Shown: piece after piece, positions 5,429 to 58,875 of the stretch | Position numbering within the stretch: position 1 is the first letter of the stretch | How the letters are laid out: each line of letters starts with the position of its first letter | Assembly: GCA_947652375.1 (NCBI GenBank) | Contig: CANTCS010000004.1 | Span: 542 to 64,541 of the forward strand | Direction: 5' to 3' | From: an uncultured Mollicutes bacterium | GTDB taxonomy: Bacteria; Bacillota_I; Bacilli_A; RF39; UBA660 | DNA length: 64,000 nucleotides | Translations under genes and position numbers: made by a program | Notes under the pieces: model-generated | Seen by the model: only the letters and a program-made list of their open reading frames with translations | The model's database searches: none | Told to the model about the DNA's origin: nothing

Positions 5429-5769
5429 TTATCAAAATAACTTTCATTTAACAGCTAACGAAGTAAAAAAATACATGACAAGTAGCTGAGATAGAATGAA
5501 ACTTATACTTAAAATGCATAAAAAAAAGTCAAAGTAAGTTTAAAAAATGTTCATTTAAATAAAGATTAAAATTTAGAGATTAAAAGATTATAACCTCACA
5601 AAGATAAAAATGTTCTTTTGCTAATTATTGGTGGTGCATTTATGACAAATAAAGTTTTTATTTAGCACTGTGGTGATTAAAATCGGTATTTAAGAATATT
5701 CTATTTTATACTTATACTACATATAAGATGTATTATTGTAATATAAAAGTGAAAAAAATTAATAAATCA

Positions 5770-5828
5770 AAATGCAACTACCAACTAGTTGTATTTTTAT
5801 ATCCCCCTCCCTATACATAATCGAAGAA
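5770..5828 (+). repeat. Remnant of an adhesin-family gene 3' end plus its downstream sequence (left direct repeat)
   Basis: 59 nt, near-identical to 7773-7832 (AAATGCAACTACCAACTAGTTGTATTTTT..ATCCCCCTCCCTATACATAATCGAAGAA). Degenerate similarity to the adhesin 3' coding end extends about 40 nt further upstream. Confidence 0.85.
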
Positions 5829-6046
5829 AAAATATTTTATAAGTTATTCAATGTTTCATGGTGCATACCCATATCCTGTTGACTTAAAATATATATAATT
5901 CAAACACGATTTAGCACAAAAATTAATACAATATTATTGAACTGTACCAAATGATAATCTATATAATTTGATAAAAATTACACTGGGATACTTTTTCAGA
6001 TAAGTATTCTTATTATGTTAAAACTAATGATATATTAGTGAATCTG

Positions 6047-6079: not shown

Positions 6080-6280
6080 GTGAATTTAATGAATAATAAA
6101 AAGCAAACTGAAAAAAAAATACAAGAAAAAATAAAAAAAGTTGATGGTGCTATGGCTCAAGAGGGAATGCCATTAACTAAAGAAATAAAACAAAAACTTT
6201 ATAATTGTATAACTGGGAAGTCAACAACTGAAATAGAACGAAATAAAGTATTAGAAAAATATAGGAGAATCTATGGATAA
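6080..6280 (+). CDS. VbhA-like Fic antitoxin (small inhibitory partner)
   Basis: 66 aa ORF overlapping the Fic start by 8 nt. AMAQEG resembles the (S/T)xxxE(G/N) inhibitory motif. The true start may be ATG 6089. Confidence 0.7.
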   Translation: MNLMNNKKQTEKKIQEKIKKVDGAMAQEGMPLTKEIKQKLYNCITGKSTTEIERNKVLEKYRRIYG

Positions 6281-6944
6281 TAAATACAAATATACTTTTG
6301 AAAAAACTGCTGATTACTGTTATAAAGATACTGATGTTTTAATAAATAAACTTAATATAACAAATGATGAAGATTTATTTAATGCCGAAAGAGAACTTGT
6401 ATCTTTAAGAACTTATGAACTAAATGAAAATCCATTAAAAGGGAATTTTGATTTTAAGTATTTAAAAGTTATTCATAAATATTTGTTTCAAGATGTTTAT
6501 AGATGGGCAGGAGATATAAGAAATTGTAATATTGCTAAACAAGATTTATTTTGCTTATCAGAACATATAGAATCATTTGGTACTGATGTATTTAATAAAG
6601 TAAAAAAAGAAAAATACTTTGTAGATTATGATAATGAAACAACATTAGATAAATTAGTGGAATTATTTGCAGATATTAATGCTTTGCACCCTTTTCGTGA
6701 GGGCAATGGCAGAAGTCAAAGAGTATTTATAGAATCACTTGCCAAAATAAATGGAATAAACTTAGATCTTACAAATGTATCTAAAATGGATATGATTGTT
6801 GCTAGTCATGAAAGTATTAATGGCGATTATAAAAAATTAAAGGATATGTTTAAAAATAATAGTCATAATTTAAGTGAAGATGAACAATCAGAATATATAA
6901 ATATTTATTGCTCTGATGAACTAAAACACTTAATAAAATATTAG
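6273..6944 (+). CDS. Fic/DOC family protein (AMP-transferase toxin type)
   Basis: Canonical Fic motif HPFREGNGRSQR, matching HxFx(D/E)GNGRxxR. Confidence 0.92.
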   Translation: MDNKYKYTFEKTADYCYKDTDVLINKLNITNDEDLFNAERELVSLRTYELNENPLKGNFDFKYLKVIHKYLFQDVYRWAGDIRNCNIAKQDLFCLSEHIESFGTDVFNKVKKEKYFVDYDNETTLDKLVELFADINALHPFREGNGRSQRVFIESLAKINGINLDLTNVSKMDMIVASHESINGDYKKLKDMFKNNSHNLSEDEQSEYINIYCSDELKHLIKY

Positions 6945-7339: not shown

Positions 7340-7801
7340 TTGTTTGAAGTTCATGAAAGTGATTTTTCAGGAAGTGATTCTTCTAATATAATTATCTATG
7401 CCTTACAAATAACAGGAACAAATGGAGCGGAATTTAAAATTACAGATAGCTCAGGAGTATCTAAGGGAACAATAACAATTGGAAGTGATGGAATTGGTGA
7501 ATTAAAAGGCTTAAAATCTGGAACTTATACAGTAACTCAAACAAAAGCCCCAGCTGGTTATGCATTAATAAGTGGTTCTCAAACAGTAAAAGTAGGAACT
7601 GGAGGAACACCAGTTTCAGGGAAAGATGGGTACTATAACATTACAATGAGAAATTCCATTTTAGCGATATTACCTTTTACAGGAAGTATGGGAACACTAA
7701 TCTTTACAATTATTGGAACTTTACTTATAATAAGTTCAATTGAATTAATAATAAGATATAAGAAAAAAAATAAAGAAAATAGAAATGCAACTACCAACTA
7801 G
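7340..7801 (+). pseudogene. Promoterless 3' cassette of the LPxTG adhesin family (C-terminal domain, sorting signal and anchor only)
   Basis: 7397-7610 matches 19704-19917 at 212 of 214 nt. Encodes YALQITGTNGAEFKITD...LPFTGS plus TM plus a KKK tail. Lacks the signal peptide and N-terminal 380 aa, with no promoter module. Confidence 0.85.
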
Positions 7802-7832
7802 TTGTATTTTTTTTATCCCCCTCCCTATACAT
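7773..7832 (+). repeat. Right direct repeat (adhesin 3' end plus downstream sequence)
   Basis: Near-identical to 5770-5828. Confidence 0.85.
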
Positions 7833-7862: not shown

Positions 7863-7893
7863 TTGACAAATAGTTGGGGGGGGGGGGTATTAT
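7863..7893 (+). promoter_or_regulatory. Sigma-A type promoter of adhesin A with a poly-G spacer
   Basis: TTGACA 7863-7868, 19-bp spacer (AATAGTT plus G12), TATTAT 7888-7893. The module is conserved at 18450-18477. Confidence 0.7.
7876..7887 (+). repeat. G12 homopolymer tract
   Basis: Counted directly from the sequence: 12 consecutive G in a very AT-rich context. Confidence 0.95.
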
Positions 7894-7925: not shown

Positions 7926-9515
7926 ATGGATAAAAAAATAAAGTTATTTGGCTTATTATTTATGTTTATTACTATTTTCTTAACTGGCAATATAAATGTA
8001 AAAGCTGTTGATATTACAACTAATACTACAAGTTTATCAACAGATTCATCATATAAACAGGTAACTAATAAAGGGTCATTTAAAATTTATACTAATCAAA
8101 GTAGCAATGATAGAACTTATTTTGCTTTATACAAAATAGTTAATGTTTATTATAATTCTAGTCAAGATGCTTTAAAGTACCAATTTACAACTGAGTTCCA
8201 ATCATATTTAAACAGTAGTTATTGTCCTAATAAATTTAGGAACTTAACTGTCGAAACATATATGACTTTATATAATGGTGGAGCGATTCGAGATACTATT
8301 AAAGGTACAGGGGAAGTTGTAAGTGGAGGGAATCTAACAACAAATGATTATGCTGAATTAATGAGTAGTTATGCAACTTATGTAAGAGAAGAGTCTATTT
8401 CTTCTAATACAACCATTACAAATTATTATACTTATATATATTCTTATGCTTATACAAATAATGTAGAAGTAGGAACATATTTAGCTTTACCTTATGGAAG
8501 ACAAGGCAATGATAGTTCTCCTTCTGTATTTGCAGTCATGGTTGATAGTGTAAGATTAGAAAAAAATGGTTCTACTTGGGAATTAAAAGACGCTAAAATT
8601 TTATCAAAATCGAGTTATTCATATTTAACTCATTCTATAGCTAAATCATCATCAGGTGGATATAGTTATTCACAAGATGTTACCTATGAAACTGAACTTG
8701 AGGGTAAAATTTCATTTAAAGTTCCAACGTCTCCTGCTAATGGAAAATTTTCTACAATAACTATCAAAATAGATAAAGTTCGTGAAACTCAAAGTGGAAT
8801 TATAAGATTTATTACCTCAGGATTGACAGGGTATATTACAATGCAGAGTGGAGGAGAGATTCAATATAATGGCACAAAAGTTGGCATGGCCAAAGTCAAT
8901 GCCACTACCAAGGAGCTTGAAATCGATTTTGATGGTGAATTACTCCCAAATGAAGTAGAATTTGTATATTATGCTGAGCCATTAACTTCAACTAATAGTG
9001 TAATGGGAGCTAATACTAGAAATGCATCAATAACATTTGACGATCCTTATACTTCATTTGATGTAGGCTATAAAACATCGGGTAGTAAAATTGTAACATT
9101 ATATACATATGCCTTACAAATAACAGGAATAAACGGGGCGGAATTTAAAGTTACAGATAGTTCAGGAATCTCTAAGGGAACAGTAACAATTGGAAGTAAT
9201 GGTATCGGTGAACTAAAAGGATTAGCAAGCGGAACCTATACAGTAACTCAAACAAAAGCCCCAGTTGGTTATGCATTGTTAAGTGGATCTCAAACAGTAA
9301 AAGTAGGAACTGGAGGAACACAAGTCTCAGGGAAAACAGGTTATTATAATATTACAATGAGAAATTCCATTTTAGCGATGTTACCATTTACAGGAAGTAA
9401 AGGAACAATTATATTTTCAATTATAGGAAGTTTACTAATTATAGCTTCAATAATATTTTTAATAAGATATAAAAAGAAGAAAAATAAAGTAAATCAAAAT
9501 GCAACTACTAACTAG
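7926..9515 (+). CDS. LPxTG-anchored surface protein, adhesin/pilin-like, paralogue A
   Basis: Signal peptide. C-terminal Cna-B/SpaA-like domain (YALQITG..GTYTVTQTKAPVGYAL). LPFTGS sortase motif, TM segment and KKKK tail. AAGGAG lies 12 nt before ATG 7926 (the ORF track starts at GTG 7914). Confidence 0.85.
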   Translation: MDKKIKLFGLLFMFITIFLTGNINVKAVDITTNTTSLSTDSSYKQVTNKGSFKIYTNQSSNDRTYFALYKIVNVYYNSSQDALKYQFTTEFQSYLNSSYCPNKFRNLTVETYMTLYNGGAIRDTIKGTGEVVSGGNLTTNDYAELMSSYATYVREESISSNTTITNYYTYIYSYAYTNNVEVGTYLALPYGRQGNDSSPSVFAVMVDSVRLEKNGSTWELKDAKILSKSSYSYLTHSIAKSSSGGYSYSQDVTYETELEGKISFKVPTSPANGKFSTITIKIDKVRETQSGIIRFITSGLTGYITMQSGGEIQYNGTKVGMAKVNATTKELEIDFDGELLPNEVEFVYYAEPLTSTNSVMGANTRNASITFDDPYTSFDVGYKTSGSKIVTLYTYALQITGINGAEFKVTDSSGISKGTVTIGSNGIGELKGLASGTYTVTQTKAPVGYALLSGSQTVKVGTGGTQVSGKTGYYNITMRNSILAMLPFTGSKGTIIFSIIGSLLIIASIIFLIRYKKKKNKVNQNATTN

Positions 9516-15419: not shown

Positions 15420-16244
15420 ATGAAAAAAATTATCTCATTATTATTAATATTAATTACATTATTTACTATAGAAGTTAATGCTGCAAATTATCAAATAAAA
15501 GAATTAATTCCTCTAGACACTTCTACAACAATAGTAACTGATAATTTTAGTTATAAAGATTTCTATTATAATGATAATAAATTAGAAGCAGAAGCTTTAA
15601 AAAATAATTTTATAATCTTTAAAGGAATAAAAAACATCTCTAATAAAGATCTTCCTGTTTCAATAAGCATCGGTTTATTTGATCAGAACAAACTAAATAT
15701 TGGCACAATAAATTATTGTTCGACAAGTGATAAAACAAGTATTGTAGCAGGGACTATATTAAAAAAAGATGAAGAAAAAGAATATGTTATAGAAGTAAAT
15801 GAAAGATTTCTTGCAGATCAAAAAACAGTACAAGATATTAAATACATTGCTATATTAAATGATAATATTCATTGCCGCAGTACAGGCTCTTTAGAATTTG
15901 TTGGAAAAAAAGTAGAGGACATAAAATTATCAAAAAAATCTCTTTTAGATGATAATCACACTCAATTAGTAATTCAATTATTTACTGTTTTAACGATAAT
16001 TTTAATAATTATTTTCTTATATAGATTTTTATTTACCAATTCATTTAATAATTTTAATGGAGAAGATTATCGTAGAGCTTTTGAAAAAAGAAATAAGCAA
16101 TTAGCTAAAGAAAGAGAAAAACTTCCTAAAGACGAGCCTAAAAAAATACTTTCTGGAAAAAGTGATTTTATTAAAGAACAGGAAGTAGAAGAATCTAAAA
16201 AAGTAAATCAAGAATCAACTGATCTACATAATATGTATAAATAA
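15420..16244 (+). CDS. Secreted/membrane-anchored hypothetical protein
   Basis: Signal peptide MKKIISLLLILITLFTIEVNA, a C-terminal TM and a charged tail. The ORF track start 15390 is probably too far upstream. Confidence 0.6.
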   Translation: MKKIISLLLILITLFTIEVNAANYQIKELIPLDTSTTIVTDNFSYKDFYYNDNKLEAEALKNNFIIFKGIKNISNKDLPVSISIGLFDQNKLNIGTINYCSTSDKTSIVAGTILKKDEEKEYVIEVNERFLADQKTVQDIKYIAILNDNIHCRSTGSLEFVGKKVEDIKLSKKSLLDDNHTQLVIQLFTVLTIILIIIFLYRFLFTNSFNNFNGEDYRRAFEKRNKQLAKEREKLPKDEPKKILSGKSDFIKEQEVEESKKVNQESTDLHNMYK

Positions 16245-16272
16245 TATAAGCTTTAAGTTTATATTTTTTTAT

Positions 16273-16304
16273 TTTCCCACAATTTCCCACAATTTTTTTA
16301 TAAT
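16273..16304 (+). promoter_or_regulatory. Tandem direct repeat TTTCCCACAA x2 abutting a TATAAT box (candidate OmpR-family binding site and promoter)
   Basis: Exact 10-bp tandem repeat at 16273-16292. TATAAT at 16299-16304, upstream of the RR-HK operon. Confidence 0.5.
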
Positions 16305-16471
16305 TCTAACACATTTATAGTTTAAGATTAAATTATCGAAAGGAGGAATGCTCATAAATTTAAAATAAAAATTAAAATAAAAAATATAACATATTAATAA
16401 ACATACAAAAGGAGGTATGTCATAATAGGAATAAAGTAAATATAGTGTTATACTATTAATAGGTGGTAATA

Positions 16472-17137
16472 ATGTATAAAGTGTGTTTAGTTGAAGATGA
16501 AGAAGCTCTCTTAAATATTGTAAAACTTTATTTAGAAAGAGCAGGCTATGAAACTATTTGTTTTACAAAAGGTCAAGAAGCAATAAATTATATTGGAAAT
16601 AGAGTAGATTTGTGGATTTTAGATATCATGTTAGGAGATGATAAAAATGGCTACGATGTAATCAATGCTATTAGAGAATATGATGAAAATGTTCCCGTAA
16701 TATTTACATCAGCTAGAGACCAAGAACTAGATAAAATTTTTGGTCTTGAACTAGGTAGTGATGATTACATGACAAAACCTTATTCCAGTAAAGAATTAGT
16801 ATTAAGAGTAAATAATATTATCAAAAGAGTCTATAAAGATTTAGACTCATCAAATAATATAATAAACTATGAAAACTATATAATTAACCTTGAGAAAAGA
16901 ACAGTTGAATTAAATAAAAAAGAACTAAAATTAACAACTTTAGAATTTGATTTACTAATATTATTTTTAAAAAATAAAGGTAAATGTTTTTCTAGAGAAG
17001 AAATATTAAATACAGTTTGGGGACAGGATTATTTTGGCAATGATAGAGTCGTTGATGATTTAATAAGAAGGATAAGAAAAAAATTATCAAAAATAAAAAT
17101 TGAAGCTGTCTATGGTTATGGATACAGAGTTTTATGA
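16472..17137 (+). CDS. OmpR/PhoB-family response regulator
   Basis: Receiver domain (VEDEE, DLWILDIMLGD, K residue) plus a winged-helix trans_reg_C domain (LTTLEFDLL...GYGYRV). Confidence 0.93.
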   Translation: MYKVCLVEDEEALLNIVKLYLERAGYETICFTKGQEAINYIGNRVDLWILDIMLGDDKNGYDVINAIREYDENVPVIFTSARDQELDKIFGLELGSDDYMTKPYSSKELVLRVNNIIKRVYKDLDSSNNIINYENYIINLEKRTVELNKKELKLTTLEFDLLILFLKNKGKCFSREEILNTVWGQDYFGNDRVVDDLIRRIRKKLSKIKIEAVYGYGYRVL

Positions 17138-18417
17138 ATTTTGGAAAAAATAATTTAAGTAAACAATTACTTTTTGTAGTCGGAATAGCTTTTATCTTAT
17201 TGTTCATTTCCTTAGGCGCTATTCTCCCAAAATTGTTAATTCCTCCAGCTGAAGCTAATATTTATAATTATCTAAATGAACCTTTAAAAATATATGATAT
17301 AAATAATGATAATAAACTTCTTGATACTGAAATAGCTTATATTTACATTACAGACAATTTAATAACAACTAGTGAAAATATTAAAGATGTTATAAAATAT
17401 AACAACCTTGGAAAAATACTTAATAAAATGACCAAATCTTATGGTAAATTTATTTATAATCATAAGACATACTACTACTATACTTTAAAATCAAAAAGAG
17501 TTACAAAAATTGCTATTTCAGATGATAGTTATATAAATAGAACTAAAACCTCTATACTAACTGCCATTTTTCCACTTGTACTTGGAACATTTTTACTAAT
17601 AGGATTGATGTTAGTCATTTGGTCCTCAATCGTTGTAAGAAAAATCGAAAAACTAAAAAATAAAATTGATAATATTGATAATCCAGATTACAATCATAAA
17701 GTAGACTTTACTACAGATGATGAAATAAGATCGCTTGCTCTAGCTATTGATGATATGCGTATTTCTTTAATAAGTCAAGAAGAATATCGTAAGCAAATGT
17801 ATCAAAATATTTCTCATGATTTTAAAACACCTCTTACCGTTATAAAATCATATATTGAAGCAGTAGAAGATGGCGTCGAAGATGAAAAAAATGCTTTCAA
17901 AACCATCAAAGAGCAAACGAACAAATTAGAACAAAAAGTACACTCACTTCTTTATTTAAATAAGCTTGATTATCTCAAAAATCAAAATAATATATCTTCA
18001 GAATTAATAGATATGCATAAATTAATAACTCAAGAAGTAGAAAAATTTAAATTTTTACAAAAAAATATAAAATTTGAAATTTCTATTGACCCAAAATCTA
18101 AATTTTATGGATCATTTGAAAATTGGGAAACAATTCTTGATAATATATTAAGTAATTTTATGAGATATGCTCACGCGACTGTTAAAATAACAGTAAAACA
18201 GAATAGAATAATTCTCTATAATGATGGAAATCAAATTGACACTGATTTACTTGAAGGAATTTTTACTCCGTTCCGAAAAGGAATCAAAGGTGAATTTGGA
18301 CTTGGACTTTCTATCGTTAAAAAAACTCTCAATTTAATGGATTACGATATAAAAATAAAAAACGAAAAGAAAGGTGTTTCATTTATAATTACTAGTAAAA
18401 AAAGGATTCGAAAATAA
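17134..18417 (+). CDS. Sensor histidine kinase
   Basis: Two TM segments, a HAMP-like linker, H-box SHDFKTPLT, N box and G boxes (GLGLSIV). ATGA overlap with the RR gene. Confidence 0.93.
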   Translation: MNFGKNNLSKQLLFVVGIAFILLFISLGAILPKLLIPPAEANIYNYLNEPLKIYDINNDNKLLDTEIAYIYITDNLITTSENIKDVIKYNNLGKILNKMTKSYGKFIYNHKTYYYYTLKSKRVTKIAISDDSYINRTKTSILTAIFPLVLGTFLLIGLMLVIWSSIVVRKIEKLKNKIDNIDNPDYNHKVDFTTDDEIRSLALAIDDMRISLISQEEYRKQMYQNISHDFKTPLTVIKSYIEAVEDGVEDEKNAFKTIKEQTNKLEQKVHSLLYLNKLDYLKNQNNISSELIDMHKLITQEVEKFKFLQKNIKFEISIDPKSKFYGSFENWETILDNILSNFMRYAHATVKITVKQNRIILYNDGNQIDTDLLEGIFTPFRKGIKGEFGLGLSIVKKTLNLMDYDIKIKNEKKGVSFIITSKKRIRK

Positions 18418-18449
18418 TGAATTCTTTTTTTGTTCCTCTTAATTATCGC

Positions 18450-18477
18450 TTGACAAATACTTGGGGGGGGGTATTAT
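18450..18477 (+). promoter_or_regulatory. Sigma-A type promoter of adhesin B with a poly-G spacer
   Basis: TTGACA 18450-18455, 16-bp spacer (AATACTT plus G9), TATTAT 18472-18477. The leader is identical to that of adhesin A. Confidence 0.7.
18463..18471 (+). repeat. G9 homopolymer tract
   Basis: Counted directly from the sequence. Confidence 0.95.
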
Positions 18478-18509
18478 TGAAATAGATAAGATAAGGAGTG
18501 ATAAGAAAA

Positions 18510-20111
18510 ATGGAGAGAAAATTAAAAATAGTTAGTTGTTTAGTTTTTTTCTTGTTTTTATTAATTAATTGTCCACTAAATGTAGAAGCAATAAATATTA
18601 CAACAAATAATGAAACTTATTCAGGTGATTCTTCATATAAAAAAGTAACAAATCATGGAAATTTTAAAATTTATACTAATACAAATAGTCATGATACAAC
18701 AAATTTTAGACTATATAAAATAGTAAATATATATTATAATTCTGTTAGAGATGAAATTAAGTATGGCTTTACAACTAATTTCCAAACATTCTTAAATAGT
18801 AGTGATTGTCCAAGTACTTTTAGAGCAATGACTATTGAAATATTTATGTCTTTAAATAAAGGAACCGCTATACGAGATCAATTAGATGGAAATAATTATG
18901 TAGTAAGTGGAGGAAATTTAACATCAAATGATTTTGCAAGACTAATGAGTGCATATGCAGGTTATGTAAGAGAGCACACAATTAGTACTGATGGATATCT
19001 TTCAATGTATTCTCTTTCGACATCTGGTCGACCATATAAAATGTCAGATTATGTTGAAGCGGGGACACATTTAGCTTTGCCAGATGATAGCATAGGAGCT
19101 GATTATGGAGTATCAGTCTTTGGAGTTATGGTAGATAGTGTAAGACTAGAAAAGAATGGCTCTACTTGGGAATTGAAAGATGCTGAAATTTTAGCTAAAA
19201 CAACTACTACATCTTTATCACATCAAATAGCTGCTAACTATCAAGGACCATTTAATTTGTCAGCAGACGTGGGCTATGGAGGTAGTCCAGAAGGTAAAAT
19301 TTTATTTGCAATCCCAACATATCCAGCCAATAGTTTAGTCCCTCCAATGATAACGGTAACAATTGATAAAGTTCGAAATGAAAGTGGTTGGCTTACTTTT
19401 GTTACTTCTGGATTTTCAATATCTGATATGTCATCAACTGGAGGAACAATTAAATATAATAATCAAACTGTTGGAACAGCTGTTAGAAATAGTAGTACAG
19501 GACAAGTTAAAGTAAAGTTTACAAGTATAAGTCTTATTCCTAAAACAATAGAATTTAAATATCATGCTGAGTCTCTAAACTCAATTAATAGTGTAATGGG
19601 AGCTAACAAAAGAAATGCGAAATTAGAGTTTAGTGATCCTTATACATCTTCTGAAACAGTAGCAATAAATACAGCAGAGAGTAGAGATGCAATATTTTAT
19701 ACATATGCCTTACAAATAACAGGAACAAATGGAGCGGTATTTAAAATTACAGATAGCTCAGGAGTATCTAAGGGAACAATAACAATTGGAAGTGATGGAA
19801 TTGGTGAATTAAAAGGCTTAAAATCTGGAACTTATACAGTAACTCAAACAAAAGCCCCAGCTGGTTATGCATTAATAAGTGATTCTCAAACAGTAAAAGT
19901 AGGAACTGGAGGAACACAAGTATCAGGAAAAACAGGATATTATAATATTACAATGAGAAATAGTATTCTTTTAGTCCTTCCATTTACTGGAAGTAAAGGA
20001 ACAATTATATTTTCAATTATAGGAAGTTTACTAATTATAGTTTCAATAATATTTTTAATAAAATATAAAAAGAAGAAAAATAAAGTAAATCAAAATACAA
20101 CTACTAACTAG
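18510..20111 (+). CDS. LPxTG-anchored surface protein, adhesin/pilin-like, paralogue B
   Basis: Same architecture as 7926-9515. The 3' ~130 nt are near-identical to paralogue A. LPFTGS motif. ATG 18510 follows AAGGAG (the ORF track starts at GTG 18498). Confidence 0.85.
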   Translation: MERKLKIVSCLVFFLFLLINCPLNVEAINITTNNETYSGDSSYKKVTNHGNFKIYTNTNSHDTTNFRLYKIVNIYYNSVRDEIKYGFTTNFQTFLNSSDCPSTFRAMTIEIFMSLNKGTAIRDQLDGNNYVVSGGNLTSNDFARLMSAYAGYVREHTISTDGYLSMYSLSTSGRPYKMSDYVEAGTHLALPDDSIGADYGVSVFGVMVDSVRLEKNGSTWELKDAEILAKTTTTSLSHQIAANYQGPFNLSADVGYGGSPEGKILFAIPTYPANSLVPPMITVTIDKVRNESGWLTFVTSGFSISDMSSTGGTIKYNNQTVGTAVRNSSTGQVKVKFTSISLIPKTIEFKYHAESLNSINSVMGANKRNAKLEFSDPYTSSETVAINTAESRDAIFYTYALQITGTNGAVFKITDSSGVSKGTITIGSDGIGELKGLKSGTYTVTQTKAPAGYALISDSQTVKVGTGGTQVSGKTGYYNITMRNSILLVLPFTGSKGTIIFSIIGSLLIIVSIIFLIKYKKKKNKVNQNTTTN

Positions 20112-20163
20112 TTGTATTTTGATTTTATTATTATCTAACTAAAATATTATTAAAATTTTTGCT

Positions 20164-20198
20164 AAAAAAATTATAGAAAATTTCTATAATTTTTTTTA
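20164..20198 (+). terminator. Bidirectional-looking terminator after adhesin B
   Basis: A-run, ATTATAGA stem, TCTATAAT stem, then T-run. Confidence 0.6.
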
Positions 20199-20361
20199 TT
20201 TTATGCTATAATTAAATAAAAGAATATAAAACTATTAAAAATAAAGAATAGAGAGGGAAGTATAATATGAAAATTTATTTATAATAATCTTTGAAAAAAA
20301 GAGAACGAAACAACTAGTATTTTAACATTTTAAAACAATTATAAAAAGGAAGTTGATAATA

Positions 20362-21225
20362 ATGAGTAGAATAAAAAATAAGACTACAAAAAATATAATC
20401 TCGATATTAATGCTAACAATTGGAACAATAATAGCTTCATTAGCATTAGAGTGTTTTTTAATTCCGAATACTATTTTAGATGGGGGTATTACTGGTATAT
20501 CTATAATAATTTCTAAATTATCAAAAATACCTTTAGCATTTTTGGTATTAGTTTTAAATATTCCTTTCATATTTATAGGTTTTAAAAATCTAGGAAAAAG
20601 TTTTCTTTTAAGAACTTTATATTCTATGATTTGTTTTTCTTTTTTTCTATCATTTTTTGGTAACTTTAAACCGTTTACAGAAGAAATTCTATTAGCAACA
20701 GTTTTCGGTGGAGCTTTATTAGGTTCAGGAGTTGGTATAGTTATTCATTTTGGAGGATGCGTTGATGGTACTGAAAGTGTAGCAATTGTAATAAGTAAAA
20801 GAACAAATTTAAGCGTTGGTCAAATAGTTTTGATGTTCAATTTAATAATTTATACAACAGCAGGTTTTATATTTGGCTTTGATAGAGCAATGTATTCACT
20901 ATTGACCTATCTAATAACATTCAAAGTAATAGATTTTGTATCAGAAGGGTTAGAGCAAGCTAAAGCTGCCTTAATAATAACAGCTAAAGGAACTTCACTA
21001 TCTAAAGAAATTTATGCAAAATTAGGAAGAACAACAACAACAATTAAAGGAAAAGGATTAATAAGCGGAGAAAAAGAAGTTTTATATTGTGTTTTAACTA
21101 GAATTGAAATATATGAATTAAAAAACTTGGTGGAAGAAATGGATGAAAGTGCTTTTATAACTATATTAGATGTTTCAGATATTATTGGAACTCATATAAA
21201 AAGTAATAACAAAAGAAAAATTTAG
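20362..21225 (+). CDS. YitT-family membrane protein (DUF2179 C-terminal domain)
   Basis: Five to six TM helices plus a C-terminal soluble domain typical of YitT. ATG 20362 lies 9 nt after AAAGGAAG. Confidence 0.8.
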   Translation: MSRIKNKTTKNIISILMLTIGTIIASLALECFLIPNTILDGGITGISIIISKLSKIPLAFLVLVLNIPFIFIGFKNLGKSFLLRTLYSMICFSFFLSFFGNFKPFTEEILLATVFGGALLGSGVGIVIHFGGCVDGTESVAIVISKRTNLSVGQIVLMFNLIIYTTAGFIFGFDRAMYSLLTYLITFKVIDFVSEGLEQAKAALIITAKGTSLSKEIYAKLGRTTTTIKGKGLISGEKEVLYCVLTRIEIYELKNLVEEMDESAFITILDVSDIIGTHIKSNNKRKI

Positions 21226-54087: not shown

Positions 54088-54096
54088 GTGTATTTA

Positions 54097-55893
54097 ATGA
54101 GTAGTATAACAGTAATGGATGAAGTTTTAGCCAATAAAATTGCTGCCGGAGAAGTAGTAGAAAAAACAATGAATGTAGTTAAAGAACTTGTTGAGAATTC
54201 TATTGATGCTAAAAGTAGTGAAATAACTATTAAACTAATTGATTCAGGTGTTAAAGAAATTGAGGTTTCAGATAACGGAATCGGAATGGATGAAGAGGAT
54301 GCTAAACTGGCCTTTCAACGTCATGCCACTTCTAAATTAAAAAATTTAGATGATTTATTTTATATCGAAAGTTTAGGTTTTCGTGGGGAGGCATTACCAT
54401 CTATTGCAAGTGTATCTAATATAACATTAAAAACAAGCGATGGAAAAAAAGGAACACTAGTTACTATTGCAGGTGGAAAAGCCATGACAGTAGAAAGATG
54501 CGATTTACAAAAAGGTACGACAATTACTGTAAGTGATTTATTTTATAATACTCCTGTTAGATTAAAATATTTAAAAAATCTTTATGTTGAACTTGCTCAT
54601 ATTGTTGAATATTTAAATAAGATGGCCTTGTCATATCCAAATATAAAATTTACATTAATAAATAATGAGAAAACCCTTCTTCAAACAGACGGTAATGGCG
54701 ATTTATTAAAAGTAATTTACTTTATATATGGAGTAGATATAACTAAAAAGATGATTGCTATAAATGGCGAAAATGATGATTATTATATTACTGGCTATAT
54801 CTCTTATCCAGAAGTTACTAAAGGAAATAGAAATTCAATTACTACTTTAATAAATGGAAGAGTTATAAAAAATAACGAATTAAATAAATGTATAATCGAT
54901 TGCTACCACACTTATATTCACAAAGATCGTTATCCTGTTATAATTTTAAATATTGACGTTGATCCAATATTAATAGATATAAATATTCATCCTACAAAAA
55001 TGGATATAAAGTTTTCTAAAATGGATACATTAAAAGAATTAATCATTAAACTAATTACTGAGCGATTAGAAGAACTAACTTTAATTCCTGAAGTGTCTGT
55101 TCGTGATAATTATTCGGTTAGTGAAGTTCATCGTCAAATTGTCAATAAAGAAATAATTCCTGAACCACATGAGGAAAAAAAAGAAGAACAAGTTTATGAA
55201 GAAATGACTCTTGACTTTGAAGTTGCCGAAAAAGAGCAAAAATACGAATCGATTAAAGAAGCGGTTGAACTATCCTCTAAAAAAGAAGAAATTCCTAAAG
55301 AAAATAAAGTTCGAATCAAAAAAATGATTCCAAGAGGTGTTGTTCTATTAACCTATATTGTAGCTGAAAATGAAGATGGGATGTATTTAATTGATCAACA
55401 TGCTGCAGCTGAGAGAATTAATTATGAAAAAATTTTAAAGGAAATGAAAGAAGAGCCTATTATCATTGATTTACTTGTTCCAATAAAAATAGAACTTCGT
55501 CCCGATGAATATATACTTATTAAAGAACGATTTACAATATTAGAAAAATATGGTTTTAGAATATCCGAGTTTGGTTTTAATACCATAATAATAAGAAGTC
55601 ATCCAGCTTGGATTAAAGAAGAAAGAGCAGAGGATATAATTAAAAAAATAGTTGATATCATTATTGAAAAATCTTCTTTTGATTTTGATCAATTTGTTTG
55701 GCGTATGGCTGCCACTACTTCTTGTCGTATGTCTGTCATGGCTAATACTTATATTTCTAAAGAAGAACAAGAGTGGATTTTAGAAAATATTAGATATTGT
55801 GATAATCCTTTTACTTGTCCCCATGGACGACCGACTATTATAACTTATACTCGTTATGAATTAGAGCGATTATTTAAGCGTCAGCTCGATTAA
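54097..55893 (+). CDS. mutL: DNA mismatch repair protein MutL
   Basis: GHKL ATPase motifs (IAAGEVVE, DNGIGM, GFRGEAL) and a C-terminal dimerisation/endonuclease domain. Confidence 0.95.
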   Translation: MSSITVMDEVLANKIAAGEVVEKTMNVVKELVENSIDAKSSEITIKLIDSGVKEIEVSDNGIGMDEEDAKLAFQRHATSKLKNLDDLFYIESLGFRGEALPSIASVSNITLKTSDGKKGTLVTIAGGKAMTVERCDLQKGTTITVSDLFYNTPVRLKYLKNLYVELAHIVEYLNKMALSYPNIKFTLINNEKTLLQTDGNGDLLKVIYFIYGVDITKKMIAINGENDDYYITGYISYPEVTKGNRNSITTLINGRVIKNNELNKCIIDCYHTYIHKDRYPVIILNIDVDPILIDINIHPTKMDIKFSKMDTLKELIIKLITERLEELTLIPEVSVRDNYSVSEVHRQIVNKEIIPEPHEEKKEEQVYEEMTLDFEVAEKEQKYESIKEAVELSSKKEEIPKENKVRIKKMIPRGVVLLTYIVAENEDGMYLIDQHAAAERINYEKILKEMKEEPIIIDLLVPIKIELRPDEYILIKERFTILEKYGFRISEFGFNTIIIRSHPAWIKEERAEDIIKKIVDIIIEKSSFDFDQFVWRMAATTSCRMSVMANTYISKEEQEWILENIRYCDNPFTCPHGRPTIITYTRYELERLFKRQLD

Positions 55894-57492: not shown

Positions 57493-58875
57493 ATGAAAAA
57501 GTTTTCTTTAAAAATAGGGTATTTTATCATTATATTTCTTGTTCTATGCATTAGTATTGGTTATTCTGCTTTGAACGAAAGATTATTAATAGATAATATC
57601 ACTGCAGAAGTACGAGTTGAAAAAGATATAAGAATTACTAATGTAGGAATTAATTCTAGCGAAAATGAAGCAATCTCTAAATATGAAAACTATAATATTA
57701 ATAATATTACTAGCTCTGTTTCTCTTCCCACAGTTAACTCAAATATTACTTATCGAATTGATATTACTAATCTTGGAAATACAGAAATGGCTATTAAAAC
57801 AATTACTGGTCTTCCAGAAAACTTAACATATGAATTATTAAATTATAATTTAAAAGATAAAATATGTGCAAATAATAAATGTAATTTAGGTATAAAAAAA
57901 GAGATTCTTTTAAAAATAAAATATAAAAACTTTAATCCCAGTCAAACTAATTATACCTTTAAATTAGATTTTGAATTTAGCCAAATTTATTCAATCAAAT
58001 ATTTAAATTTAGAAAATAATAATTTATACCCTAAAGAAATCTTAGATAAAGAGACATTAAAAATCAATTTTCAAAATTCTCTTCCAAATAGTTTAAGTAT
58101 AAAAATGAATAATCTTTCTTTACAAGAAAATATTGATTATACTTTTACTAACAATTGTCTAACTATTCCAAATATAAATGGAAATATAGAAATTATTCTA
58201 AATTATCAATCTTTCTTAAAAGAAATAAATAAAGGCGAATATTTTAAAGAAGAACTTTATTTTGACAAAATAAAAAATGTTTATTTTGTCGACTATATTG
58301 AAAAGGATAATTTTTTAAAAAGTTATGATGTTACAGAAGAACAAAATGGACGAATTATAGCTTGGATAGTTGCCAATGAAAGTGATTTTGATTTATATAT
58401 TGGTTCCAATGAAGAAATAAAAGCCAAAAGTTTAAAAGGTCTATTTCAAGATATGTTAATAGAAAATATTGATTTTAATAACTTTTCCACTGAAGAAACA
58501 ATCAATTTTCAAGATATGTTTAATAATTGTCAAAATTTAAAAAAACTAAATCTTAATAATTTTACTACAGAAAAAGCAAAGAATTTAGAAAGAATGTTTG
58601 CCAATTGCGAGAATTTATTAAGTTTAAATTTTTCTAATTCTATCTTCAATCAAGATAATAATTTAAATGAAATGTTTTACAATTGCACTACATTAAAAGA
58701 TTTAAAACTTGGCACTATTTCTCCAAATGTTATTCTCTGTAGCAATATATTTAAAAATGTAAATATCAGTGCAGAAATTACTGTAAAAAATGAAGAAACA
58801 AAGAATTGGATTTTAAATCTACCTGTAAATGATCGCCCTGAAGTATGGTCTGATGTAAATATAAGCATTGTCTAA
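57493..58875 (+). CDS. Surface protein with C-terminal BspA/DUF285-type leucine-rich repeats
   Basis: N-terminal signal anchor. Repeats of the form F(x)NCxNLKxLNLxNFxT...NLxxMF. Confidence 0.75.
   Translation: MKKFSLKIGYFIIIFLVLCISIGYSALNERLLIDNITAEVRVEKDIRITNVGINSSENEAISKYENYNINNITSSVSLPTVNSNITYRIDITNLGNTEMAIKTITGLPENLTYELLNYNLKDKICANNKCNLGIKKEILLKIKYKNFNPSQTNYTFKLDFEFSQIYSIKYLNLENNNLYPKEILDKETLKINFQNSLPNSLSIKMNNLSLQENIDYTFTNNCLTIPNINGNIEIILNYQSFLKEINKGEYFKEELYFDKIKNVYFVDYIEKDNFLKSYDVTEEQNGRIIAWIVANESDFDLYIGSNEEIKAKSLKGLFQDMLIENIDFNNFSTEETINFQDMFNNCQNLKKLNLNNFTTEKAKNLERMFANCENLLSLNFSNSIFNQDNNLNEMFYNCTTLKDLKLGTISPNVILCSNIFKNVNISAEITVKNEETKNWILNLPVNDRPEVWSDVNISIV

Follow-up and report, generated by a model that had tools for sequence, protein, structure and literature searches.

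A homopolymeric tract of nine G residues (G9) was found inside the -35/-10 spacer of the putative promoter of gene B, which encodes a pilin-like surface protein in an uncultured low-G+C bacterium of gut type. We consider it probable that this tract acts as a slippage-driven promoter-spacer expression switch of the classical kind rather than by a new mechanism. Four observations underlie this reading: the anatomy of the module, the conservation of its hexamers, the 17-18 nt spacing kept in relatives, and a length polymorphism at a related locus. Throughout, the window is the whole 64-kb stretch of DNA that was analysed, and locus A is the paralogous copy of the module within it.

Anatomy of the poly-G promoter module and its gene

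The two loci contain the following features.

18450-18455, plus strand: -35 hexamer TTGACA of the locus B promoter (sequence and sigma-70-type scan)
18456-18462, plus strand: non-repeat part of the locus B spacer, AATACTT (its equivalent at locus A is AATAGTT)
18463-18471, plus strand: G9 homopolymeric tract of locus B, occupying the 3' side of the 16-nt spacer; proposed slippage site
18472-18477, plus strand: -10 hexamer TATTAT of the locus B promoter (sequence and scan)
18478-18509, plus strand: locus B leader, with the ribosome-binding site AAGGAG at 18493-18498; its first 24 nt are those of locus A
18510-20111, plus strand: gene B, encoding a secreted surface protein of 533 aa that is LPFTG-anchored, has SpaA/CnaB at its C-terminus and resembles backbone pilins in its fold
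20087-20125, plus strand: 17-bp terminator-like hairpin over the gene B stop codon (-18.5 kcal/mol)
7863-7893, plus strand: locus A promoter module, TTGACA, AATAGTT, G12 (7876-7887) and TATTAT, with a 19-nt spacer
7926-9515, plus strand: gene A, a 529-aa paralogue that is 60% identical to B

Every base of the module given in the initial annotation is correct: 18450-18477 reads TTGACA, AATACTT, GGGGGGGGG and TATTAT. Locus B had been taken as a second copy of the locus A module, and this is what the alignment gave, as homology between the two loci runs from one base before the -35 hexamers (7862 and 18449) into the genes. The 24-mer TGAAATAGATAAGATAAGGAGTGA, which opens the leader (18478-18501 at B), has two occurrences in the window (7894 and 18478), where chance would give 0, which bears out the claimed identity of the leaders. 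The two modules do differ by tract length and one spacer base (AATACTT versus AATAGTT), as had been stated, and their spacers of 16 nt (B) and 19 nt (A) fall on either side of the 17-18 nt of the tract-free family members.

In a sigma-70-type scan of 4.6 kb (16000-20600), the locus B promoter was the only 11-of-12 match. As a class, promoter-like matches were found about as often as in shuffles of this A+T-rich DNA (34 found versus 35 expected), and the promoter call therefore rests on conservation and not on the scan. Two alternative assignments were rejected. GTG at 18498 directly abuts GGAG, which disfavors it as the start of gene B, and ATG at 18510 opens a typical signal peptide. At locus A, the hexamer that would lie in register 17 nt upstream of the -10 box is GACAAA, which matches the -35 consensus at 2 of 6 positions.

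The tracts stand out from the base composition of the window, whose G+C content is ≈25%. Runs of eight or more G residues occur at 7876-7887 (G12) and 18463-18471 (G9) and nowhere else in the window, corresponding to 7 overlapping matches of the G8 pattern compared to 0.03 in shuffles. The census of G runs proceeds from 4 (32 runs) to 5 (4 runs) and 6 (1 run), and then jumps to 9 and 12, which makes both tracts strong outliers at the same place of the same module. Even the longest A and T runs reach 10 and 8, respectively, in this 75% A+T sequence. At 9 and 12 nt, both tracts are of the length (about 8 or more) at which mononucleotide tracts are taken to be slippage-prone.

Proteins A and B each have a signal peptide, and both carry an LPFTG sorting signal and, in the C-terminal part, a SpaA/CnaB domain. 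For B, Pfam matches were to SpaA (1.8e-11) and Gram_pos_anchor (2.1e-05), and LPFTG is at residue 490. An AlphaFold model of protein B (mean pLDDT 84.5) gave as its best Foldseek matches Clostridium perfringens CppA (5xcc), Streptococcus pyogenes T6 (4p0d) and Streptococcus sanguinis PilA (8wxd), with E-values of 1e-18 to 1e-20 and TM-scores of 0.44-0.59; S. sanguinis PilB and Corynebacterium diphtheriae SpaD were further top matches, and E-values across the top set were 1e-16 to 1e-20. The lysine of the pilin motif (YPKN) is absent, the family having YPAN, or YPIN in P0008, as is the E-box glutamate, where the matching motif of the family reads TQTKAPxGY. Nor did the 64-kb window yield a sortase, as tblastn with the sortase of a relative gave E > 1 and no open frame contained TLxTC. 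Since the YPKN lysine, the E-box glutamate and a sortase in the window are all missing, we call the gene B product pilin-like and wall-anchored, and do not regard it as a proven pilus subunit. Polymerisation through a non-canonical lysine, in the manner of S. pyogenes pilins, is possible in these proteins, and in one relative (L040) a sortase gene and a glycosyltransferase gene adjoin the family genes.

The hairpin at 20087-20125 ends gene B, which implies that B is a single-gene unit. The stop codons of family genes lie inside their own hairpins (…AACTAGTTG…), followed by a T run, as at 7775-7816 and 20087-20125 in the window; the family terminator is thus partly encoded by conserved C-terminal codons.

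The genes around the two loci are chromosomal housekeeping genes (lepA, hemW, tmk, nadE, tkt, uvrC and mutL). Two 3' fragments of the pilin-like family, at 7340-7801 and 5739-5840, flank a Fic-domain gene (6273-6944). One fragment retains ≈145 codons from the end of the gene, with 86% identity to the C-terminal part of B, and the other is a remnant of ≈100 nt with a terminator and a C-rich arm (see below). These fragments point to a tandem array that has decayed or to earlier recombination between paralogues. In four samples (L006, L007, L010 and L011), the array that contains family member P0011 has transposase genes (UPF0236 and Y1_Tnp) in place of the yebC-side genes found in other samples, and the junction is immediately upstream of the promoter; the P0011 arrays sit in rearrangement-prone regions. 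Elsewhere in the window, 57493-58875 encodes a 460-aa protein with DUF285 ("Mycoplasma protein of unknown function"), which fits a Mollicutes-related lineage of low-G+C Bacilli.

Promoter spacing and tract length across the family

We compared the upstream DNA of homologues at 34-54% identity, which was read and aligned by anchoring on the hexamers. The promoters have the following spacers.

P0005, tract-free: 18 nt
P0011, tract-free: 18 nt
P0013, tract-free: 17 nt
P0007, tract-free: 17 nt
P0008, tract-free: 18 nt
518-aa gene, two alleles, no homopolymer: 17 and 18 nt
B, G9: 16 nt
A, G12: 19 nt
P0012 locus, G13 / G14: 19 / 20 nt

All seven tract-free family promoters consist of a TTGACA-like hexamer, a spacer of 17 or 18 nt, TA[TC]TAT and a leader of 27-34 nt with GGAG. 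TTGACA is exact in 9 of the 11 family promoters, and TA[TC]TAT is present in all. This comparison shows the hexamers to be the conserved elements of the family's predicted promoters. Counted by locus, the spacer lies outside 17-18 nt at none of the six tract-free loci versus all three tract-bearing ones. A single slippage step would bring either window copy into this range, as B at G10 has a spacer of 17 nt and A at G11 one of 18 nt. The 518-aa paralogue has an interrupted G-rich spacer, GTGGGAGTGGGG(G), in which strains differ by one G (17 versus 18 nt); this variant is accompanied by a TTGATA/TTGACA change (L002, L003, L005 and L009; e.g., L003 5706-5740). This spacer looks like a decayed or nascent tract.

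Several further searches were unproductive. Exact-protein look-ups for genes A and B and their close paralogues P0001-P0003 gave no match, and a family-alignment scan of genome contigs gave one 24%-identical locus with no G or C run of at least 6. A degenerate -10/leader pattern had seven matches in metagenome contigs, all of them chance matches in unrelated contexts, and a pattern of G8 plus -10 and leader had none in viral contigs.

Length variation was found at the P0012 locus, whose encoded protein is identical in six samples. The sole difference between two of these samples over 3,233 nt, with zero mismatches, is G14 (L015) versus G13 (L016). In four of the six samples, the contig is broken inside the tract, and one of these contigs (L020) opens with 16 G residues; all four broken contigs are 100% identical to L015 across the 1.7-1.9 kb aligned. 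By contrast, the promoter of a tract-free paralogue (P0013), which served as a control, is invariant in ten contigs. At locus A, the window and an independent assembly (L028), which are 99.7% identical over 2,699 nt, agree on a tract of G12. The G13/G14 difference and the contig breaks at the P0012 locus are as predicted for a hypermutable tract, and hypermutability is supported at the level of the family by these contig sequences. Homopolymers of 12-16 G residues are error-prone in Illumina sequencing and break de Bruijn assemblies for technical reasons. It follows that the lengths may be off by one and that the contig breaks are to be read as suggestive only; both G13 versus G14 and the breaks at the P0012 locus could be partly artefactual. 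Mismatch repair is probably present in the host, given a MutL homologue encoded at 54088-55893, directly downstream of uvrC, and slippage would be moderated by it.

The same technical trouble raises the question of whether the tracts or their lengths, coming from a metagenome-assembled genome, were created in sequencing or assembly. Illumina sequencing and assembly are both known to have difficulty with long poly-G (discussed in PMC9187656), and contigs of the related locus terminate in poly-G. However, the window holds two independent copies with unique sequence on both flanks, G12 recurs in the independent assembly L028, and homologous tracts are contig-internal at the same promoter position in L015 and L016. 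We regard an artefact as extremely improbable and conclude that the tracts are real, although their exact lengths may be off by one. A different possibility is that the tract is a fixed G-rich spacer retained by descent, so that the differences between A and B would be ordinary fixed differences between paralogues with constitutively low promoter strength. The relatives' non-homopolymeric G- or purine-rich spacers (e.g., GTGGGAAGAGAGG, GTGGGAGTGGGGG and GTTATGAGAGAGCG) and the G12 of locus A in two assemblies are consistent with a fixed spacer. A precedent also exists in the T-tract near the promoter of Mycoplasma agalactiae vpma, which has no role (PMC2268961), so that not every homopolymer adjoining a -10 box acts as a switch. 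Against fixation, pure runs of 9-16 G residues are far beyond the homopolymer distribution of the window, all tract-bearing promoters have left the 17-18 nt that every tract-free relative keeps, and one tract G is the sole difference between two samples in 3.2 kb at the P0012 locus. Taken together, we judge a fixed spacer unlikely.

The proposed switch and its neighbouring elements

In the proposed mechanism, the locus B promoter would be of the housekeeping-sigma type (TTGACA / TATTAT), with G9 setting the length of its spacer. Slipped-strand mispairing during replication would add G residues to the tract or remove them, and the altered -35/-10 distance would change the strength of the promoter of this single-gene, pilin-like unit. 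Slippage at A and B and its rate, the start site of transcription, and the response of transcription to tract length are the inferred parts of this model. At G9 and 16 nt, B would be one nucleotide short of the family's 17-18 nt and hence reduced but not fully off, with its high state at G10 or G11. At G12 and 19 nt, A would be one step past the range on the opposite side, in a low state. These assignments of a reduced state to B and a low state to A are made by analogy. With its own tract at each paralogue, cells of one population may express different subsets of surface proteins, and surface-exposed, pilin-like products are the usual cargo of such switches. Two properties of the tract itself bear on the predicted spacing. 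Its G residues at -13 to -15 form a partial extended -10 element at locus B (GGn for TGn), which could lessen the dependence of the promoter on -35 spacing. Moreover, the helical twist of poly-G is slightly different, so the best spacing may differ from the expected one by as much as one base.

Upstream of locus B lies a two-component system with the following features.

16463-17137, plus strand: OmpR-type response regulator (Response_reg and Trans_reg_C)
17134-18417, plus strand: histidine kinase (HAMP/HisKA/HATPase_c)
18396-18432, plus strand: A/U-rich 15-bp hairpin over the kinase stop codon (-11 kcal/mol), a possible weak terminator

The initial annotation had placed the gene 30 nt after the stop of this operon. 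The close spacing stands, but it is the -35 hexamer, not the gene, that lies 32 nt past the kinase stop; the ATG is 92 nt away. This proximity would allow gene B to be controlled mainly by signals, either through the OmpR-type regulator binding upstream of the -35 hexamer or through read-through from the operon, with the tract in a secondary role. The intervening hairpin is A/U-rich and weak, has no G+C-rich stem, and was not flagged by a terminator scan that demands G+C, which makes read-through plausible. A precedent for a regulator acting jointly with poly-G is the Tp0262 CRP homologue at the tprE/G/J promoters of Treponema pallidum (PMC7864442). However, the two loci are homologous only from the -35 hexamer onward, which places the sequence upstream of B outside the duplicated module, and an OmpR-type pair directly upstream is lacking both at locus A and in the other family members examined. 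The closest gene of this kind, in L002, L003 and L008, encodes a 267-aa receiver-domain protein and is ≈2.4 kb and four genes upstream. No direct repeat of 10-11 nt periodicity that could be a candidate site for the regulator was found in 18380-18450, and the TTTCCCACAA repeat is absent at B. We therefore consider mainly signal-dependent control very unlikely, and the earlier suggestion of a switch superimposed on two-component control found no support in this comparison: the module begins at the -35 hexamer, the relatives lack such a pair, and B has no counterpart of TTTCCCACAA. The adjacency of the two-component system looks incidental, and weak read-through from its operon into B is possible.

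TTTCCCACAA itself forms a perfect direct repeat (2.3 copies, 10-nt period) at 16273-16295, ≈170 nt upstream of the regulator gene, and is a plausible candidate autoregulatory site of the OmpR-type regulator. As a regulator site shared with the pilin-like genes it was rejected, since matches with at most 2 mismatches numbered 68 versus 79 expected, none of them at promoters A or B.

The G-rich spacers of locus A and of three diverged relatives are each accompanied by a C-rich arm 43-51 nt upstream.

7817-7825, plus strand: C-rich arm CCCCCTCCC of locus A, complementary to the tract there, with the -35 hexamer enclosed between the two
L015 1388-1398, L003 about 5663-5675, and L040 1-7: C-rich arms in relatives

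CCCCCTCCC lies just past the terminator of the upstream gene fragment, its pairing with the G tract has a fold z-score of -4.4, and the only C runs of at least 5 in the window (7817-7825 and 5803-5811) are both copies of the arm. The arms co-vary with their G-rich spacers, non-G positions included: CCCCCTCCC is paired with G12, CCCCTCCACCC with G14, CCCTCACCCACAA with TTGTGGGAGTGGGGG, and CCTCTTC with GAAGAGAGG. No C-rich arm is present at locus B or in family promoters whose spacers are not G-rich. The variable tract could be half of a conserved inverted repeat whose C-rich arm is functional, although we hold this to be doubtful. In read-through RNA, the arm might form a hairpin whose stability varies with tract length and which shields each paralogue in a tandem array from the gene upstream; alternatively, a hairpin in the DNA might favor slippage or bias it. 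Neutral co-evolution through quasi-palindrome template switching is a candidate alternative. If the functional reading is true, the arm would give a simple-repeat switch a structural partner, and the arm-less locus B would be its natural control. An invertible promoter bounded by the C- and G-rich arms was rejected: the enclosed segment is ≈45-50 bp with no adjacent recombinase, and its orientation is the same in all four contigs covering such loci.

Relation to known systems

The switch proposed for locus B resembles several described systems. One is Neisseria meningitidis porA, where poly-G between the -35 and -10 boxes gives graded expression of a surface protein by one-base changes: 11G is high, 10G is ≈2-fold lower, and 9G is 6-13-fold lower (PMC3639595). 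PorA differs in being a Gram-negative outer-membrane porin of a cultured pathogen, with switching measured experimentally, whereas the present locus belongs to uncultured low-G+C Bacilli, carries an LPFTG-anchored pilin-like cargo, and is a predicted switch. T. pallidum tp0126 and tprE/G/J/L are likewise a paralogous surface family with its own poly-G length at each promoter. The optimum for tp0126 is a -35/-10 distance of 17 nt, and a CRP-like regulator acts together with tract length (PMC7864442). In the tpr genes of this spirochaete, however, the tract is just upstream of the transcription start and not strictly in the spacer, and heterogeneity was established by fragment analysis, whereas here it is deduced from assemblies.

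Mycoplasma hyorhinis vlp, Mycoplasma arthritidis maa2 and Mycoplasma mycoides vmm also form combinatorial surface-protein families with spacer indels, and their lineage, likewise of low G+C content, is related to Bacilli. In vlp, the tract consists of poly-A and serves lipoproteins of wall-less cells, unlike the poly-G found here, in a genome of 25% G+C, upstream of sortase substrates. Spacer indels turn vlp, maa2 and vmm on and off (PMC2268961 and references therein).

Sortase-dependent pili of Bifidobacterium breve, a gut commensal, are controlled by replication slippage in G10-G12 tracts, with several loci giving combinations of states (PMC9187656). In this high-G+C actinobacterium, however, the tracts lie in coding sequence and cause frameshifting, whereas the tract described here lies in a promoter spacer and would affect transcription initiation. 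In Gram-positive cocci, changes in repeat length upstream of LPXTG or pilus genes alter transcript amounts (PMC3894217, PMC7098570), as for Streptococcus gallolyticus pil1 and S. pyogenes R28. Neither has a spacer tract: the pil1 repeats are GCAGA units in a leader peptide, combined with a terminator (attenuation), and the R28 poly-T separates a pair of direct repeats within the intergenic region of divergent genes.

In the literature searched, such a switch is undescribed for this lineage and gene family, and the conserved C-rich arm is the sole element for which no precedent was found. Locus B by itself opens no new mechanistic question. If confirmed, the switch would extend poly-G spacer phase variation, a mechanism known in Neisseria, Treponema and mycoplasmas, to uncultured Bacilli of very low G+C content from a metagenome-only lineage, and to a sortase-anchored pilin-like family. 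Consensus assemblies of metagenomes would then mask heterogeneity of surface-protein expression in such commensals, and tract lengths taken directly from existing read sets could stand in for the in vivo state of the surface proteins.
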